44,632 nt of DNA. It comes from a virus. Position 1 is the stretch's first letter. Every line of letters starts with the position of its first letter. The stretch lies in UHGV virus genome UHGV-0179607. One strand, given 5' to 3'. Below are positions 19,251 through 28,322 of the stretch, in pieces. The translations under genes and the position numbers were made by a program. The notes beneath the pieces were generated by a model. The model saw only the letters and a program-made list of their open reading frames with translations. It made no database searches and had not been told where the DNA came from.

Positions 19251-21542
19251 TTATTTCCTGTATCTGTACATAATGTCGCCTTCCGCGGCAAGCGGGAAGC
19301 CTTTCGCCCAAACAGGCAGGTCGCACATCAGCGCGCATAGCTCCTCGGTCGTGTAGTCGTCAGTATCCGGAACTTCGGTGATCAATTCATCGTGCACTGA
19401 CAGGACGATCTCATAGCCAGCAGCCTCAACGCCGGGCATGGACCACGCGAGGATATCGCGACACAGCGCCTGTACGATGTTTTCCGTCAGTTTGCCGCCG
19501 TAGGTATACTGGAAGCCCCACTGGCGCGTCGTCTGATTCTCGCCCTGGTATTTGATGCGGGTGCTGGTGCGCTTCTTGCCGGTGTCTTCGTCGATCTCGG
19601 TCGTGACAGACAGCGCGATGCCGGGGTAGCTCATGATGCGCCCTGACGGCAACTCAATTTTAAGCCACCACCCCGCCGCGTTCGGGTCGTCGCGCTCCTC
19701 GTCGAAGGTCGGGTCATGCTTCGCCTTCGTTCGAACAATTTTGAGCGCTTTCTTACCATCCGGGCGAACGTTCGCGCCAGCCCAGTATGCTTTGCCCGGA
19801 TTGCGGATTGCGCACAACACCGCGTCCTCAAGCTCTGCCCAAAAGGCTACCGTCTTCGGGTGGGCCTCACGCCACATACGTTTGATCGCGTCACACGTCA
19901 ACCACACGTTTTTCGGCAGTATGTAAGTTGGGCGCTCGTCTTTCTTGCCAGGCTTCGGCGGGCGCTTAGCTTCGTTAATGCGGGCGTATTCATAGCCCCG
20001 TTTCGCCGCTGCCCAAATATGATCGGGGAATGTGCCTTTCATGACGTCCGCCATCGCATACAGGTCGAGGCCCAGGTTTTTCGCGAACTGCAAGAATGCC
20101 GCCACGCCACCACCATAGCCCAGGCCCAATTCGCACGCCTTACCAATCTGGCGTAAGTCTTTGCGGTTGGCTTTGATGTATTCCGGGTCGAGGCCAAACA
20201 TCTTACCGGCAGTTTCACAATAGATATCGCGACCCGCCCTAAACACCATTAGCGCGGTTTTCTCACCAGCGATCCAGGCAAGCCCGCGACCTTCCACGTT
20301 GGAATAGTCCGCTACGACAAACTTCTTGCCCTTAGCCGGAATAATGCACCCGCGAACGGTCGAGGCCGTTAACTTCGATATGTCATACGCCCAGTGTGCG
20401 GTCCCGCGTAACAGGGAGTTGATGCCGTTGGTAAGCATGTGCGACCGCACCCAAAACGCGACGTCGCTCTCGCCTTCACGGCGCTTAATCTTCCCTTCGT
20501 GGTCGTCGCTATACTCGCCGCGTGCCAGGTTTTGCGGCTGGAAGCCTTTGCCAGCCCAGCGTAGCGTGCGTTTCGCCCCGCCATACTGGAGACACCCACG
20601 ACGGCGACCATCTGCGGATAAGCCATTAACGAGCGGATTGTACTTAGTCGATGCCGTTGATGACGCACCGAGGCGCATCTCTATAAGCACTTTGCCCTCG
20701 TCGGGGAAGTCCGGGTCTTCCAGCAGGTCGTTAAGTGTGGATTTCTGCGCGTTGTGGATTGTGAACGCAGGCGCGAGGTCGCGCAGCGCTGGCAGGAAGT
20801 CATTGCCTGTCAGCTTACCGCCGAAGCGCTCCCATGCTTCTTCCTTCAATTCTTCCTTATGCGCCTGCACCGCTTTGATCGCGGCGTTCGCCAGGTCAAC
20901 GTCCACATAGAAGCCGCGGTCGTTAATAATCTGGTCAATAAGCAGGATTTCATCTTCCTTCGGCGTGTTACCCCAGTCCGGTATGCGCCAGTAGACTTCA
21001 CGCATGGCAACAATATCCAGCGCGGCGTAGCGCAGGAATTTATCCCACTCCTCGGGGTGCGTCTCGCGCGTATAGCGGCGGATTTTGTAGGTCTTAGGGG
21101 TTGGCTTACAGAATCGTTTGATCAGCGCCTTGCCAGCCTTATCCTTCGCGTGCTCTGCATCAACACCCAACACCTGGCACTGCATATCGAGGCTACCCGG
21201 CAGCGCGTGGCGAAAGGCCATAATCATGGTATCTTCGATCTGGCCTACCGGCAGGTCAATGCCCCACTTCTCGCGAATAACCAGGCGGTCAAACAGGAGG
21301 CCGTTAGCCATAACGATTTTTGCTTTCTTGCGGGATACCCGGCGGAGCGCCTTGCGCAGTTCACGCGGCATTGTGGGGGATTCGGTGCAATCCCATGTCT
21401 GCACGCGGCCCTCGTCGATGGCGTATGTGCAAATCATAATCTCGGTAGTTGGGTGTTCCGCGTAGGCGTATGCGCCCACTTTCTTCAGATCCACCCCGCT
21501 AAATGTCTCGGTATCGAGAAAAAGTCGTTCGAAGTCTTTCAT
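19251..21542 (-). CDS. DNA polymerase, family A, with N-terminal 3'-5' exonuclease domain
   Basis: Exo I-like FLDTETFS; Pol A motif A DYSNVEGR; motif B RQIGKACELGLGYGGG; motif C LSVHDELITEV; 763 aa. Confidence 0.9.
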   Translation of the reverse strand: MKDFERLFLDTETFSGVDLKKVGAYAYAEHPTTEIMICTYAIDEGRVQTWDCTESPTMPRELRKALRRVSRKKAKIVMANGLLFDRLVIREKWGIDLPVGQIEDTMIMAFRHALPGSLDMQCQVLGVDAEHAKDKAGKALIKRFCKPTPKTYKIRRYTRETHPEEWDKFLRYAALDIVAMREVYWRIPDWGNTPKEDEILLIDQIINDRGFYVDVDLANAAIKAVQAHKEELKEEAWERFGGKLTGNDFLPALRDLAPAFTIHNAQKSTLNDLLEDPDFPDEGKVLIEMRLGASSTASTKYNPLVNGLSADGRRRGCLQYGGAKRTLRWAGKGFQPQNLARGEYSDDHEGKIKRREGESDVAFWVRSHMLTNGINSLLRGTAHWAYDISKLTASTVRGCIIPAKGKKFVVADYSNVEGRGLAWIAGEKTALMVFRAGRDIYCETAGKMFGLDPEYIKANRKDLRQIGKACELGLGYGGGVAAFLQFAKNLGLDLYAMADVMKGTFPDHIWAAAKRGYEYARINEAKRPPKPGKKDERPTYILPKNVWLTCDAIKRMWREAHPKTVAFWAELEDAVLCAIRNPGKAYWAGANVRPDGKKALKIVRTKAKHDPTFDEERDDPNAAGWWLKIELPSGRIMSYPGIALSVTTEIDEDTGKKRTSTRIKYQGENQTTRQWGFQYTYGGKLTENIVQALCRDILAWSMPGVEAAGYEIVLSVHDELITEVPDTDDYTTEELCALMCDLPVWAKGFPLAAEGDIMYRYRK

Positions 21543-21709
21543 TGCTTAATCCTCACTACGGCGTCAGCGCTGCCGATCATAGAGAAGATACCGTCGGAAA
21601 GGGTTATCTCCTCGCCGTTGTTGCGAATCTCGGCAACGGTGAAATATTCCCCCAGCAATTTGGACCATACCTGCATTCCGACTTTTACTTCGCTGGCTTT
21701 AATGCGCAT
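21539..21709 (-). CDS. small hypothetical protein (not in ORF track)
   Basis: 56-aa ORF MRIKASEVKVGMQVW...; AGGA SD; stop overlaps the polymerase ATG (ATGA). Confidence 0.3.
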   Translation of the reverse strand: MRIKASEVKVGMQVWSKLLGEYFTVAEIRNNGEEITLSDGIFSMIGSADAVVRIKQ

Positions 21710-21723
21710 TTTTCATTGTCCTA

Positions 21724-21749
21724 TTAAAAAGCCCGCATTAAGCGGGCTT
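21724..21749 (-). terminator. minus-strand rho-independent terminator/attenuator after the SSB-like gene
   Basis: Stem AAGCCCGC / GCGGGCTT (loop TTAA) followed on the minus strand by TTTTTAAT. Confidence 0.45.
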
Positions 21750-21767
21750 GAATAGTGGGCCTTGCCC

Positions 21768-22547
21768 TTAACGGCGGCGACGTTTGCGTGGCGCTTCGTC
21801 TTCGTCGTCGTCCTCATCTTCGTCATCGCGTGGCTTACGACGTTTGCGAGGTTTTTCATCTTCCTCATCGTCGTCGTCATCGCGGCGCTTGGACTTTTTG
21901 GACTTACGCGGCTTATCATCTTCATCGTCATCACGACGTTTTGACTTCTTAGCCTTGCGCGGTGCTTCGTCTTCGTCGTCGTTGTCCAGGTCTTCATCGG
22001 AGCAAGAAGACCCGCCACCGCCGAAGGCTTCACCGTCATCCCGGAAGCGTAAACCCAGCAAGCCAGCGCCGAGTCCCTTGCCGTTGGTGTTGTTCCACGC
22101 CCAAATATCCAGGGACACGTTGCAATAGCAACCGGAATAGATTTCCTGGCCTTCGATCTCGTCGCCTTCTACGGTAAGACCTTGTTCAGTCTGCTTCTCG
22201 CCGAGTGACGTTTGGATGTTTGGCTGTTTGAACGATTTGGCGTTGATGTACAACATGCCTTCGAACTCTTCGGTTACTTCATCGCGCTCGTCGCCGTCGC
22301 GAACTGCGCATTCCTTAGAATCCTGGGCGTAGTGGCGGTCCATCCACTTATCGGCATTCTTCTCGGATTTCAGCTTGTCGGTGAGCACTGCTCGCGCTGC
22401 CGCTTCCACTTTGTCCACCTGCGGATCTTCTTTATCAAGAAGAATCACGGCGCGGTATGCCGGTTTTTGTCCATCCTGTTTAGGGGTATCACGTTCCCAA
22501 ATTTTCAGGAAACATACGCGCACATTTTTCAGGTTGACTTTAGCCAT
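21768..22547 (-). CDS. single-stranded DNA-binding protein-like (T7 gp2.5-type) with long charged repeat tail
   Basis: N-terminus MAKVNLKNVRVCFLKIWE and FGGGG followed by an acidic stretch resemble gp2.5-like phage SSBs; C-terminal ~90 aa are tandem acidic/basic repeats (DDEDE.PRK.KKSKRRDDD); GAGGA SD at ATG 22547. Confidence 0.45.
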   Translation of the reverse strand: MAKVNLKNVRVCFLKIWERDTPKQDGQKPAYRAVILLDKEDPQVDKVEAAARAVLTDKLKSEKNADKWMDRHYAQDSKECAVRDGDERDEVTEEFEGMLYINAKSFKQPNIQTSLGEKQTEQGLTVEGDEIEGQEIYSGCYCNVSLDIWAWNNTNGKGLGAGLLGLRFRDDGEAFGGGGSSCSDEDLDNDDEDEAPRKAKKSKRRDDDEDDKPRKSKKSKRRDDDDDEEDEKPRKRRKPRDDEDEDDDEDEAPRKRRRR

Positions 22548-22637
22548 TTTCCAATTCCTCATTTTCACATGTATCGGGGTTATTGGAAGCCACCCCGTTC
22601 GGCTTGGTTGCTAATCTACTTGGTTGCGCCTAAGCGG

Positions 22638-22880
22638 TCAAGCATTTTCATTAAAAAGATTTCGGGTAACGTAGTTGGTGGCGTTCTCGATCCAGCTTAA
22701 CGGCGGTCGGTCGATGTTCTTCTCCACCCAGCCGACGGCAGCGTCGCTATAGCCGTCGTCAAGCCAGCGGGTCGGATGGCGAATCATCCACGCCACCATT
22801 AGCACGCCTTGCACGCAATGCAGGATAAAGCCCAGCGCGCCGAGCAAAAACATCAATAAGATTGCAAATACTTTATTCAT
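22638..22880 (-). CDS. small membrane protein (hypothetical)
   Basis: 80 aa from ATG 22880 with GAGGA SD; two hydrophobic segments (AILLMFLLGALGFIL, GVLMVAWMI). Confidence 0.4.
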   Translation of the reverse strand: MNKVFAILLMFLLGALGFILHCVQGVLMVAWMIRHPTRWLDDGYSDAAVGWVEKNIDRPPLSWIENATNYVTRNLFNENA

Positions 22881-24306
22881 CACTTAAGTCCTCGTCGGTA
22901 GCTTCGGACCACGCGGGGCGCGGGTCGTCGATTGGGGCTAATACCGGTTTAGCCGGTGCGCGCGTGATTTTATCACACAGCTTCGCCCACACTTTTGGTT
23001 TTTCGTCCTTCAATACCTTCTCGGCATCCGTAGGGCTGAGCAATGTTTCTTTGTACATCACATCGCGCTTGATCCGGGCCTTCGTGAAGATTTCAATAAC
23101 TTCGCTCTCGTCCGCCCACTTACGGATCCCTTCCTTACCGGCAACCATCTTGAGGCCCAGCGATTCACCATCACCCGCCATTACAGCCTTAAATACCGCG
23201 GACTCGATCGCTTTGATGTGCTGGCGCATTGCGTCCAGACCCTCATAAGCCTTGCGCAGTTCCGCAGCGCTCATAGCGCCAGGGGCCGCTTCTTTCTTAC
23301 CGCGCTTCGCACGTCGTGCCGCCTTCCTGGCTTCGCGGGCCATATTGCGGTCATGGTTGGCGCATTCTTCCTCTGTCGCAATACTCACGTCGTCGCCCAG
23401 GTCTTCGTCGGTTGCCGTTGGGGGTGTCATCGTGTCGATTGCGGCCTTAGCGCGGGCACTACACTGATCCGCAAATCGGCACCACTGGCACGCATCAACG
23501 CTGGGGCGGAAGTCTGCGCGGGTAAGCCCCTTCTTGCCTCGGGAATACGCCTCCAGTGCGGCAATAGCGCGCTTGGATGCAAACTTCGCGAATATCTCCA
23601 GAGCTTCTACCGAAATATCCCACTCCGACGCCCCACCGCAATACGGCTGGAAGATAACCAGGCGAACGGTCGTAATGTCGTACATAGTTTGCAGTTTGCG
23701 CAGCAGGCCGAGCGCGTACAACATAAGCTGTTTGTTCTCTTTCGCCTCGACCTTATGCCGCCCGGTCTTCAGGTCGCCAACAATCAGCATGTACGTTCCA
23801 TCGGTCTTTTTCATGACCATGACCATATCGGCAGTACCGAACGTTTTAATCCTGTTGCCGTCGATCTCGTAGCCTGAGTGAAGGACGCGGGTCAGATCGG
23901 CGCGCATCTCAAGCTGGATAAACTCCGCCACTTCGATGAGCGGTCGCCAGTGGTCGATGTACGCGTCGCACTGTTTCACCATGTCGTCGTTGACCAGTAC
24001 GCCGCCTTTCGGTGCTTTCGGGTGTGCCTTTACTGGCCCCTTGCCTTCGTTCTCGACGTAGCACCCTTTATACGTCTTCGCGGTTATCAGCTTCTCACCG
24101 GCGATAATGCGGTTTAGCACCACCTCCGATACGGTGTGCATACTCGTACCGTTAATCGCGGCTTGCCCGGATTCGTTCGGGATATCTTTTTCTACCACCA
24201 GGGCGGCGGGGCAACCCATCCATTTTTTAGCACCGGATGGCCCGAGTAATGAGTGTTCCGTATTGCTGCCGGATTGCGTCTTACGTTTTGGTTTAATCGC
24301 CATCAT
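22873..24306 (-). CDS. PD-(D/E)XK family exonuclease, Cas4/RecB-like with C-terminal Cys cluster
   Basis: Nuclease core GDLKTG...EAKENKQLMLYALGL and C-terminal CQWCRFADQC cysteine cluster typical of Cas4/RecB-type Fe-S nucleases; 477 aa. Confidence 0.6.
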   Translation of the reverse strand: MMAIKPKRKTQSGSNTEHSLLGPSGAKKWMGCPAALVVEKDIPNESGQAAINGTSMHTVSEVVLNRIIAGEKLITAKTYKGCYVENEGKGPVKAHPKAPKGGVLVNDDMVKQCDAYIDHWRPLIEVAEFIQLEMRADLTRVLHSGYEIDGNRIKTFGTADMVMVMKKTDGTYMLIVGDLKTGRHKVEAKENKQLMLYALGLLRKLQTMYDITTVRLVIFQPYCGGASEWDISVEALEIFAKFASKRAIAALEAYSRGKKGLTRADFRPSVDACQWCRFADQCSARAKAAIDTMTPPTATDEDLGDDVSIATEEECANHDRNMAREARKAARRAKRGKKEAAPGAMSAAELRKAYEGLDAMRQHIKAIESAVFKAVMAGDGESLGLKMVAGKEGIRKWADESEVIEIFTKARIKRDVMYKETLLSPTDAEKVLKDEKPKVWAKLCDKITRAPAKPVLAPIDDPRPAWSEATDEDLSDE

Positions 24307-26057: not shown

Positions 26058-28322
26058 ATGAGCTTAATTAAATTCGCTGTTACAAGACCCGCTAAAAAAG
26101 GCGAAAAAGCCAGGGCGGAAAACTTCCAGATGACCACCGATGAATTTTTCGAATTTATCAAAGATGCGAAAGAAATCTCCTCGGTGCATATCAACAAGAC
26201 GGAAGATAAAGCCGAGTATGCGCGCCGCAAGCGTAAGGCCGACGGCATCGTGGCGTATACCAGTGACGGATTGCGTCGTAAGACCAGTGCGGTGGACCGC
26301 TCGATCCTGTTCTTCGATATTGACCGTACCGACACCCGCACCCTACGCCGCTGCCGTAAGGCGTTCATTGACGCGGGGCTGGAACACGTATTTCACACCA
26401 CAACCGGCGACCGTCACCCACTGAAAGGCGGCACGCGTTGCGCTCGATTCCTGGTGCTCACTGACAAGCCTGTACCGGCTGAAGACCTGGGCCGCGTCCA
26501 GTATGCACTATTACACCAACTGGGTCTGTCAGATGTGGACTTCGACGATTGCACGAAAGACACAAACCGCCTGATGTACCTGCCACACCAGCAGTCTGTT
26601 ATTAAGTGCCACTACGGCAAGCGCGCCCGCGTCCGTCGTCTGCTTCGCCTGGCGGATAAGTTGGGCGCGGAAAAAGAGGAAGTACGCCGCGAGCTTACCC
26701 AGGGCGACGACGCAGTGGCAGACGGCATTCTGGACTGGTGCTTCCAGGCAGGATTCGAGGAGTTATCTTCCGGGCGGGGCTATGAAGTGCCGTGCCCTAA
26801 CGAACATCTACACAGCGGCGAAGGGTCCACCGCTATTATGGTTAAGGACGGCGAGATCCGTTTCAAGTGCATGCACACAGGCAACGAGTGTTGCTCGGAA
26901 CTGAATAGACACCAGCACCTGGCGCTGCGTCTTATCGGGATCCCGGACCACCTGAACGTCGAGCCACACAATATGTCCCGTAAGCAAATCGCCGCCATCC
27001 TTCCGGGGCTGGACGACGAGGAAGTCGAATCCTTATATGAACATATTGTTGATGCGGTTGGCGACGGCGAAGAATACGGCGTGTGCACCGATGCGGATCT
27101 GGATAACGAGCCGGTTGCGCTGTTCAGTAAGCACGACCCGATTATCGAGGGGTTGATTAACTTTAAATCGACCTGGTACATGGCGGGTGAGTCGAATATA
27201 GGTAAGTCTTTCTACGTGCTGGGCCAGATGGGCGCGGTTGCTGCCGGTATTCCGTTTGGCGGTGCGAAGGTCGTCCAGTCTCATTGCTTCTATTTCGACG
27301 CGGAAGGTGGCGAAGCCTCTAACCAGCGTAAAGAAGCATTGCAGATTAAATATGAGCACGACCTGGACAAGCTGCACATTATCGATCTGCAGTCACGCGG
27401 CTGGGATATCACCAGCAAATCGGGCTTGCGCGAAGTTATCAGCTTTATCAACCGCACCGCTAACGGCGAACCGGTTGGCCTGGTGGCGTTCGACTCACTC
27501 AACCAGACTGTTGCGTTGCGGTCCGCTGATGCTAAACCGTTCGACGAGAACAACGCCAGCGATATGGGTGAAGTGGTCAAAGCGCTGAAGGCCATCGCGG
27601 AAAATACAGGTGGTAGTGCGGGCGTCATCCACCACCCGGCTAAAGGTGCAAACGGCAGCAGAACGCCACGCGGGTCCGGCGCGCTGCATGGTGCTGTCGA
27701 TTCTGCGTTCTTCCTGGAACAGCCGGACGACAACCAGCCCGGACAATTGAACCTGTATCACGAAAAGTCACGTAACGGCATCAAGCAAGCGCCGCGCGGC
27801 TTCGTCCTGCTCAAGTGCAAGGTGAAGGTGGATCTCCGCAAGTCAGAAGCGTTCGAGGCGCACCAGTCCACCAGCACCGGGCCAGACTTCGGCGACGTGG
27901 TTGCCGGATGGGACGTCAAGCCGATTGCCTCCACGCCACGCGACGAGACTCTCTACCTCGTACCGGTTGCCCTGGCACCTTTCGCTATTGAACAGGCGAA
28001 GGCGGCGGGCAAGGCCGCGGTTAAGGAAGAGAACACCGCCGGACCGCGCAACGAAAAAGAGAAAGTGCTTTATGCGGCACTGGAAAAACTGATGGAAGAT
28101 AACCCGGACCATACTGGATTCAGTAAATCGGCAATCGTCCGCCAGGCGGGACTCGCAAAAGGGGGCACTTCGACGAAGGCAATCGACGATATGGTGGAGC
28201 GCGGGGTAATAGGTTTTTATACAGATCCGCACACCGGGGCCATCTATGGGTCTTCTAATTTGGTCATCAAATCGGATATCCCTATCACGCTTTCCGCGAC
28301 CGATGACGATTTAAAAGATTAA
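26058..28322 (+). CDS. primase-polymerase (AEP-like) / P-loop replicative helicase fusion protein
   Basis: N-terminal ILFFDIDRTD resembles the AEP/prim-pol DxD motif; central Cys/His cluster (CPNEHLHSG...CMHTGNECC); P-loop MAGESNIGKSF of RecA/DnaB-like (AAA_25-type) helicases; 754 aa. Confidence 0.55.
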   Translation: MSLIKFAVTRPAKKGEKARAENFQMTTDEFFEFIKDAKEISSVHINKTEDKAEYARRKRKADGIVAYTSDGLRRKTSAVDRSILFFDIDRTDTRTLRRCRKAFIDAGLEHVFHTTTGDRHPLKGGTRCARFLVLTDKPVPAEDLGRVQYALLHQLGLSDVDFDDCTKDTNRLMYLPHQQSVIKCHYGKRARVRRLLRLADKLGAEKEEVRRELTQGDDAVADGILDWCFQAGFEELSSGRGYEVPCPNEHLHSGEGSTAIMVKDGEIRFKCMHTGNECCSELNRHQHLALRLIGIPDHLNVEPHNMSRKQIAAILPGLDDEEVESLYEHIVDAVGDGEEYGVCTDADLDNEPVALFSKHDPIIEGLINFKSTWYMAGESNIGKSFYVLGQMGAVAAGIPFGGAKVVQSHCFYFDAEGGEASNQRKEALQIKYEHDLDKLHIIDLQSRGWDITSKSGLREVISFINRTANGEPVGLVAFDSLNQTVALRSADAKPFDENNASDMGEVVKALKAIAENTGGSAGVIHHPAKGANGSRTPRGSGALHGAVDSAFFLEQPDDNQPGQLNLYHEKSRNGIKQAPRGFVLLKCKVKVDLRKSEAFEAHQSTSTGPDFGDVVAGWDVKPIASTPRDETLYLVPVALAPFAIEQAKAAGKAAVKEENTAGPRNEKEKVLYAALEKLMEDNPDHTGFSKSAIVRQAGLAKGGTSTKAIDDMVERGVIGFYTDPHTGAIYGSSNLVIKSDIPITLSATDDDLKD

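Follow-up and report, generated by a model that had tools for sequence, protein, structure and literature searches.

A tail of repeated acidic and basic blocks on a predicted gp2.5/Enc34-type single-stranded DNA-binding protein of a Dhillonvirus

Introduction

Single-stranded DNA-binding (SSB) proteins of bacteria and phages are usually described as an OB fold followed by an acidic tail whose hydrophobic tip recruits partners. In phage T7, gp4 carries an acidic tail similar to that of the SSB gp2.5, and the tails of both proteins dock on the polymerase gp5. Here we describe the corresponding SSB of UHGV virus genome UHGV-0179607, a stretch of 44,632 nucleotides (nt; hereafter the window) from a Dhillonvirus, an HK578-like Escherichia coli siphovirus, in which the SSB ends in a long tail of alternating acidic and basic blocks. 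The acidic C-terminal tail of T7 gp2.5 physically interacts with other replication proteins (PMC10359462). In Enc34 ORF6, of the same Pfam family, the OB groove holds a neighbour's tail in the crystal, and the acidic tail acts in the discrimination between single-stranded DNA (ssDNA) and double-stranded DNA (dsDNA) (PMC5686142).

The SSB, its family and its gene module, published as duf2800-gp2.5-polA (PMC8093625), are already known and annotated in many genomes. Positions 21600-22700 of the window match 155 phage records at 84-97% identity, and over its first 190 residues the SSB has 99.5% identity to its counterparts in SECphi18, HK578 and others. The orthologue in SECphi4, SECphi6 and SECphi18, which triggers Retron-Eco8, was taken to be the phage SSB in experimental work; the Retron-Eco8 study modelled residues 1-186, omitted the flexible C-terminus and left the tail undiscussed. 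Searches of the open-access literature turned up no account of how the tail is built, of its units, their copy-number series, their recurrence on other folds or the acidic-DL motif reported below.

Results

Positions 21771-22040 on the minus strand encode DDGEAFGGGGSSCSDEDLDNDDEDEAPRKAKKSKRRDDDEDDKPRKSKKSKRRDDDDDEEDEKPRKRRKPRDDEDEDDDEDEAPRKRRRR followed by a stop codon, and the tail sequence quoted in a preliminary description of this DNA proved to be correct. That description had put the tail at ~90 amino acids (aa); the repeated acid/base character stood, but the length did not, as counting from SDEDL gives 77 aa and counting after F175 gives 84 aa. Each unit is built of an acidic block, then x-Pro-Arg/Lys, then a basic block; APRKRRRR closes the protein (Table 1). 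The tandem DNA repeats claimed to encode them are likewise real, although degenerate: Tandem Repeats Finder (TRF) reported a 51-base-pair (bp) period in 1.9 copies at 21865-21962 with 78% matches, and a repeat search returned two 51-nt copies of 73% identity and three 45-nt copies of 64-80% identity, located between 21784 and 21999, the whole repeat region spanning ~230 nt. Set beside the classical short, net-acidic SSB tail, this tail is disordered and has a net charge of -7, but it is 77 aa long and 36% of it is Lys or Arg, in four blocks. Nor does it end in the classical hydrophobic or aromatic residue.

The domain that bears the tail was assigned by family, fold and residue. The protein matched PF10991 (Enc34_ssDNA-bd, formerly DUF2815) with 110.2 bits (E = 1.2e-31; cut-off 26 bits), over profile positions 2-173 of 176 and residues 10-200 of the 266-aa open reading frame (ORF), and phrog_112, 'Gp2.5-like ssDNA binding and annealing protein', at E = 9e-57; sequence matches in the PDB were 4klk, 4jg2 and Enc34 ORF6 (5odj/5odk). 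In an AlphaFold model built on 77 homologues, residues 1-170 had predicted local distance difference test (pLDDT) values of 92-98, and Foldseek matched the model to 4klk (2e-12), 5odl (4e-12) and T7 gp2.5 (1je5, 3e-6), and also to 5odj and 4jg2. The hallmark of the family is an OB barrel whose strand beta2 is followed by a long capping helix (PMC5686142), and the capping helix is present in the model, as helices 43-59 and 62-72 after strand 30-38. Of the residues with which Enc34 contacts DNA, Trp150 corresponds to W149 here, Asn154 to N153 and Arg112 to K104; Lys46 aligns to A30, with K28 two residues off, and neither of the less conserved residues Tyr156 and Tyr37 is retained. The SSB had no match to PF00436 at E <= 0.01 and no DDDIPF-type tip. 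By these comparisons the protein is an SSB and annealing protein of the gp2.5/Enc34 type, with predicted ssDNA binding; within the family, a preference for ssDNA has been demonstrated only for Enc34 ORF6 (PMC5686142). The assignment made in the preliminary description is thus borne out, and the FGGGG that it placed before the acidic stretch belongs to the conserved domain end, for which the consensus is DGEAFGGG.

We then examined the disorder and charge pattern of the tail. In the AlphaFold model the tail had pLDDT values of 48-61, and its sole secondary structure was a four-residue helix at DEDL. The charged fraction was 0.82 (45% acidic, 36% basic), with a net charge per residue of -0.09. 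Charges of like sign were strongly segregated: the Das-Pappu kappa was 0.53, compared to 0.10 +/- 0.04 (maximum 0.35) in 2000 composition-preserving shuffles, and charge-segregation z-scores were 5-11 across homologues. With 8-9 Lys/Arg per unit and a terminal RKRRRR, the basic blocks could chiefly be a second nucleic-acid-binding arm that clamps DNA or RNA and drives annealing or dsDNA contact, in place of a role at the OB cleft or in protein-protein contacts. The classification of the family as SSB and annealing protein (phrog_112; PMC8093625) is in line with this, as is the finding that Enc34 ORF6 without its acidic tail binds dsDNA (PMC5686142), which indicates that tail charge controls DNA specificity. 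We nevertheless consider such an arm quite unlikely, since the tail as a whole is net negative and the longer acidic blocks that flank the basic ones would compete with DNA. Pfam gave no match to an AT-hook or any other known DNA-binding motif, and the P-R-G-R-P core is absent, so such motifs were rejected.

Tail length was compared among related phages, in an alignment of 13 Dhillonvirus genes together with those of welsh, PS2, Sloth, rolling and LM40P1. The tail has one unit in welsh, two in EP23, three in HK578, EK99P-1 and Sloth, and four in most. All indels in the tails of the Dhillonvirus genes examined were in-frame and removed whole units: unit 2 is missing from HK578, EK99P-1, EP23 and welsh, and unit 3 from EP23 and welsh, the welsh tail reading SDEDLDNDDEDEAPRKRRRR. 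When 59 spread-sampled records were scored by their coordinates, 46 had four units, 11 had three, and two and one units were each found once; relative to the four-unit length, 11 records were 42-69 nt shorter, one was 105 nt shorter and one 171 nt shorter. The first acidic motif and the terminal APRKRRRR were found in every intact Dhillonvirus gene examined, and the acidic block that precedes APRKRRRR varies slightly (DDEDEAPRKRRRR in most, DEDKAPRKRRRR in EK99P-1). The cluster of the protein at 90% identity (P0001) has 537 member sequences. Comparison of these genes shows that the tail arose when a one-unit ancestor, with one acidic block and then x-P-R-R/K-R-R-R, was duplicated in tandem and in frame, and a tail of this ancestral type persists in phage welsh and in Jerseyvirus.

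Three records depart from this series. In P0005 (Escherichia phage vB_EcoS-22664B1) and P0009, the SSB is frameshifted just after SDDDLGD and the tail is read in another frame down to the terminator (...KGKAHYSSPL...GQ). Either the repeat was sequenced wrongly or the phage is viable with no acid/base unit at all. In L013 (IMGVR_UViG_3300045988_003101), the contig breaks within the SSB repeat and its last codons translate to AVSYTHLRAHET, recognisable as translated sequencing adapter; the record thus appears to be a short-read assembly that broke at the repeat, with its adapter left untrimmed.

The preliminary description had raised the worry that the repeat region is an assembly expansion. The frameshifts in two database entries and the adapter-derived end of the L013 contig would fit an assembly or sequencing artefact. 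Against it, near-identical four-unit tails recur in many independently assembled Dhillonvirus isolates from different laboratories, the length variants are all in-frame and unit-wise, and the copies within the ~230-nt region are too divergent for an assembler to collapse or expand them. The worry is refuted by these observations, and an artefact has a negligible probability and is effectively excluded.

We next asked how the tail evolves at the codon level. Summed over pairs of the 13 Dhillonvirus genes, the ratio of nonsynonymous to synonymous change (dN/dS) was 0.080 in the tail, at a synonymous divergence (dS) of 0.40, and 0.046 in the OB domain, at a dS of 0.32. The amino acids of the tail are conserved while its synonymous sites drift, which speaks against both an overlapping gene and an element at the DNA level. 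Purifying selection together with undiminished synonymous change marks the tail as belonging to the protein rather than to the DNA or to a faulty assembly. On these estimates the tail is under purifying selection as a feature of the protein. This bears on the proposal that the repeats are a DNA-level element, such as origin iterons, or an overlapping gene (minus-strand ORF 21713..22039). Degenerate direct DNA repeats are present, and an alternative frame is open across the region, into which P0005 and P0009 read. However, third positions in the tail are no more conserved than in the OB domain, the repeat copies are only 64-80% identical, viable phages lose whole units, and the protein pattern persists in distant homologues whose DNA is unrelated; the open frame follows automatically from the GAN/AAR/CGN codons. 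Iterons or an origin were rejected on the high dS of the tail, and an alternative-frame gene on the same dS and on a frame held open through codon composition alone. We regard this proposal as very improbable, and effectively excluded.

To place the tail within its family, homologues were searched for in two ways. The first search preselects by shared 5-residue words, which favours similar tails, so that the first homologue set is biased. A filter-free search with the OB domain alone gave 1992 representatives at E <= 0.001, of which the best 150 were taken, 149 of them with an intact domain end. At least three alternating charge blocks were present in 14 of these 149 cluster representatives, which makes the alternating tail a minority variant, in ~9% of clusters; the view that alternating tails are the family norm, drawn from the word-biased sample, was rejected accordingly. 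Tails in the OB-only sample (n = 149) were acidic, with a median of 25 aa and a hydrophobic or aromatic end, and their commonest last residues were F, A, I, L and V. The preliminary description called the tail unusual for an SSB, and by this count it is; yet the term is only half right, as the variant occurs in every Dhillonvirus examined, in Guernseyvirinae and in numerous relatives from metagenomes, at identities as low as 24%. Jerseyvirus and one Kagunavirus (fEg-Eco19) have the one-unit version (e.g. ...SVDDLEDDEDETPRRERRRNR), two units are present in the Kagunavirus St162 and three in Serratia phage Scapp, the Guernseyvirinae carrying one- or two-unit versions. Many distant relatives have 3-9 units before a retained acidic/hydrophobic end (DDDDDL, DDDVA, DDDIPF). 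In the tail-enriched, non-redundant homologue set, Pro stands just before or after the first basic residue at ~88% of 265 acid-to-base junctions, with the consensus DDDEDE-(A/K/R)-P-R-(K/R)-R-R-(S/R)-R. On a crude tree of 254 OB domains, made by the unweighted pair group method with arithmetic mean, the trait changed at least 19 times.

Five proteins matched the query via the tail alone, and all are SSBs of other folds: P0117 and P0119 are gp32-like (PF08804, phrog_1192), P0114 is a PF00436 SSB, and P0111 and P0118 are phrog_14578 SSBs, whose repeats are N-terminal. P0117 and P0114 are each encoded within a phage replication module, and the contig of P0111 (L029) is too short for context. Loci of other-fold SSBs that carry acid/base-x-P-R-K repeats are L028, L029 and L030. 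A tail-only search of a 5.8-billion-protein database gave 152 word-sharing candidates, none with E <= 0.01.

These data can also be read as a tolerated low-complexity expansion, in which slippage or unequal recombination in GA-rich codons inflates a disordered tail, composition alone is constrained, as far as solubility and lack of toxicity demand, and the units are mere spacer. Such an expansion would fit the one to four units among viable isolates, the lack of units in most of the family, and the direct DNA repeats, which favour deletion and duplication. It fits less well with a tail dN/dS of 0.08 at a dS of 0.40, with a junction Pro and an acid-then-base order kept across lineages of 24-60% OB identity, with an invariant terminal APRKRRRR, with the dominance of the four-unit form in both the 59 sampled records and the 537-member cluster, or with the same architecture on other SSB folds. 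We therefore hold a tolerated expansion to be possible, although on the unlikely side.

The proximal acidic motif of the tail recurs in the window. In six-frame ORFs of at least 80 aa, the motif [ST]-x-(D/E)(D/E)-D-L was found at four places, all in replication proteins (Table 1): at the C-terminus and internally in the DUF2800 exonuclease, at the C-terminus of the helicase-primase, and at the start of the SSB tail, where the peptide that bears it is CSDEDLDNDDEDE. The same scan found no acidic-DL motif in the polymerase (19251..21542). Helicase-primases of Guernseyvirinae relatives end in TSVEDDLEN, TVTEEDLE, KTTEGDLE and VASDEDLNS. Furthermore, in 14 phage lineages, with loci taken individually, the exonuclease C-terminus resembled the start of the cognate SSB tail, and more so in cognate pairs than in shuffled ones (permutation of pairings, p ~4e-4). 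For example, exonucleases that end in AEDEFDV, FTDFSDEDE and VTEEDL are paired with SSBs that contain AEDEFDI, FKDFGEDDEDE and SVDDLEDD, respectively. The occurrence of the motif on SSB, exonuclease and helicase-primase suggests that it may be a common docking site; by analogy, the polymerase would be the obvious candidate receptor, and the groove of the SSB OB domain an alternative candidate.

The exonuclease has a further feature. Relative to the Pfam model it carries an insert (447 residues over 368 profile positions; 23290-23440, minus strand, aa ~296-345) that consists of an acidic and then a basic stretch (TATDEDLGDDVSIATEEE...AREARKAARRAKRGKKEAAP), reminiscent of one SSB tail unit.

The SSB gene lies between the genes of the DUF2800 exonuclease (upstream) and the family A DNA polymerase (Pol A, downstream), all on the same strand, and the order exonuclease-SSB-Pol A is kept in most related loci examined. 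The full ORF extends over 21768..22568 (minus strand, 266 aa). The ATG at 22547 is likely the start codon: it has GAGGA 8 nt upstream (22556-22560), and the same MAKVNL start was chosen by the annotators of welsh, PS2, Sloth and rolling. The in-frame upstream GTG at 22568 and ATG at 22562 are less likely starts. A 'terminator' is annotated in vB_Eco_CS16, PTXU06 and WF5505 at the place of the terminator-like hairpin that follows the gene (Table 1); a simple terminator scan missed this hairpin because its T-run is one T short of the scan rule.

Two small conserved genes flank the SSB gene (Table 1); the 81-aa product of one of them, of phrog_11211, is mislabelled 'mature oligodendrocyte transmembrane protein' by RefSeq in SECphi18. 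The polymerase gene is ~900 nt longer in several relatives, including PS2 (L024), S104 (L016) and fEg-Eco19 (L017), with lengths of 3189 and 3153 nt compared to 2292 nt here. An intein is noted in the S104 record, and the polymerase of the window is without one.

Table 1. Features of the SSB gene, its tail and the replication genes around it (positions in the window; + and - denote the strand)
Feature	Position	Strand	Description or basis
SSB / ssDNA-annealing protein gene (predicted)	21768..22547	-	259 aa + stop; ORF, PF10991, phrog_112
OB-fold ssDNA-binding domain (predicted)	22023..22547	-	aa 1-175, ends ...DGEAF; Pfam, AlphaFold model, Foldseek
Gly/Ser hinge	22002..22022	-	GGGGSSC, aa 176-182; sequence; pLDDT drops to ~72 then ~60
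Proximal acidic motif	21987..22001	-	SDEDL, aa 183-187; motif scan (tail start CSDEDLDND, SDEDL core); short model helix 184-187
Tail unit 1	21933..21986	-	DNDDEDE-A-P-RKAKKSKRR, aa 188-205
Tail unit 2	21882..21932	-	DDDEDD-K-P-RKSKKSKRR, aa 206-222; with unit 1 forms the 51-bp tandem repeat
Tail unit 3	21828..21881	-	DDDDDEEDE-K-P-RKRRKPR, aa 223-240
Tail unit 4 (terminal)	21771..21827	-	DDEDEDDDEDE-A-P-RKRRRR-COOH, aa 241-259
Intrinsic-terminator-like hairpin	21726..21749	-	AAGCCCGC-TTAAT-GCGGGCTT then TTT; 18 nt past the SSB stop codon
DUF2800 PD-(D/E)XK exonuclease gene	22873..24306	-	PF10926 at 2e-66, PF12705, phrog_69
Exonuclease C-terminal motif	22876-22899	-	...SEATDEDLSDE, then stop
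Exonuclease internal motif	23386-23412	-	TATDEDLGDD, basic stretch after
Family A DNA polymerase gene	19251..21542	-	763 aa; PF00476, phrog_17
Replicative helicase-primase gene	26058..28322	+	754 aa; phrog_3228 E = 0, PF13481
Helicase-primase C-terminal motif	28296-28319	+	...LSATDDDLKD, then stop
Conserved protein	21539..21709	-	56 aa; phrog_10102; flanks SSB gene
Predicted membrane protein	22638..22883	-	81 aa; phrog_11211; flanks SSB gene

Discussion

The reading that we favour, at about even confidence, is that the tail is an extensible, disordered electrostatic extension of a gp2.5/Enc34-type SSB which tunes DNA binding, self-association and partner contacts. SDEDL would dock the SSB at a site that the exonuclease and helicase-primase also use. 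Given how T7 gp2.5 and gp4 bind gp5, this site would most likely be on the DNA polymerase, with the OB groove as the alternative. The acidic blocks would act as a classical SSB tail does, competing with ssDNA for the basic OB cleft and suppressing dsDNA binding, for which the tail of Enc34 ORF6 is the precedent (PMC5686142), while the basic blocks and the poly-Arg end would partly neutralise them and may contact both the acidic blocks of neighbouring SSBs and the DNA backbone. Such a length-adjustable block polyampholyte could tune cooperativity, self-association or condensation on ssDNA, and annealing, with the unit number as a fast-evolving dial between a fixed first acidic motif and a fixed terminal APRKRRRR. 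The preliminary suggestion that the tail could mediate protein or nucleic-acid interactions is plausible.

Several points weigh against a tuning role of the repeated tail. Phage welsh is viable with one unit, so that the internal units are dispensable under laboratory conditions, and a short, purely acidic tail suffices in ~91% of family clusters. The SSB has no C-terminal aromatic or hydrophobic residue, and the analogy with T7 partner binding may thus not transfer. The dN/dS values are pairwise sums that are not independent, taken over 13 sequences of a low-complexity region, and the junction statistics come from a biased homologue set. Published work on the orthologue, finally, leaves the flexible C-terminus aside.

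A broader conjecture, which we judge unlikely, is that (acidic)n-x-Pro-(Arg/Lys)n tails are a recurrent module, independently acquired by SSBs of at least four families (PF10991, gp32-like, PF00436 and phrog_14578), which drives charge-pattern-dependent self-association or condensation of SSB-coated ssDNA into replication foci. In Dhillonvirus and Guernseyvirinae the poly-Arg end would have replaced the acidic/aromatic tip, docking having moved to the internal [ST]-D/E-D/E-D-L. If true, the replisome hub in Dhillonvirus and Guernseyvirinae would be differently wired.

A common and easily grown E. coli phage genus thus has an SSB with a charge-blocky polyampholyte tail that ends in poly-arginine. 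Natural alleles with one, two, three and four units (welsh, EP23, HK578 and most others, respectively) make a role of charge patterning directly testable, and questions on how it affects SSB cooperativity, condensation, annealing and partner exchange can be addressed with them. The tail also bears on how SSB-sensing defence systems such as Retron-Eco8 see the SSB, and on the design of gp2.5-type annealing proteins for recombineering, and the common acidic-DL motif offers a concrete handle on replisome wiring.

Comparison with known systems

The SSB of the window is most readily compared with ORF6 of Enterobacter/Hafnia phage Enc34 (5ODJ, 5ODK, 5ODL), with which it has in common the Pfam family, the fold, the W150/N154/R112 contacts and a C-terminal segment that is unstructured and opens with an acidic stretch, at an OB identity of ~22%. 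However, the Enc34 ORF6 tail is only ~29 aa long, is simply acidic (16/29 D/E) and ends in ...WDEDEV (PMC5686142). The SSB of SECphi4, SECphi6 and SECphi18 (all Dhillonvirus) is the orthologue at the same locus and biologically the same protein, the one from SECphi18 being among those with the 99.5% identity noted above.

Like T7 gp2.5, the protein combines an OB fold of the T7 type with a long capping helix (match to 1je5, E = 3e-6), and like it, is the SSB of a replisome with a family A polymerase and a helicase-primase that bears a similar acidic motif. The T7 gp2.5 tail, in contrast, has 26 residues and is purely acidic, and its C-terminal Phe is essential, whereas the SSB described here has no terminal aromatic residue, carries its acidic motif internally and continues after the motif with polyampholyte repeats.

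With E. coli SSB (PF00436) it has in common an OB domain followed by a long disordered region, although the OB family is another one. The linker of E. coli SSB has been reported to control cooperativity and phase separation, a type of role like the one suggested for the present tail; it is rich in Gly, Gln and Pro, is nearly uncharged and leads to a DDDIPF end, whereas the tail here is 82% charged and has no tip. Some distant PF10991 relatives (P0091, P0095) keep a DDDIPF-like end after their repeats. In T4 gp32, a basic N-terminal and an acidic C-terminal flexible region serve cooperativity and partner binding. This protein differs in fold and separates its two charge types, one at each end, while the tail here interleaves them. 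The gp32-like P0117 and P0119 carry the same acid/base repeats as this SSB.

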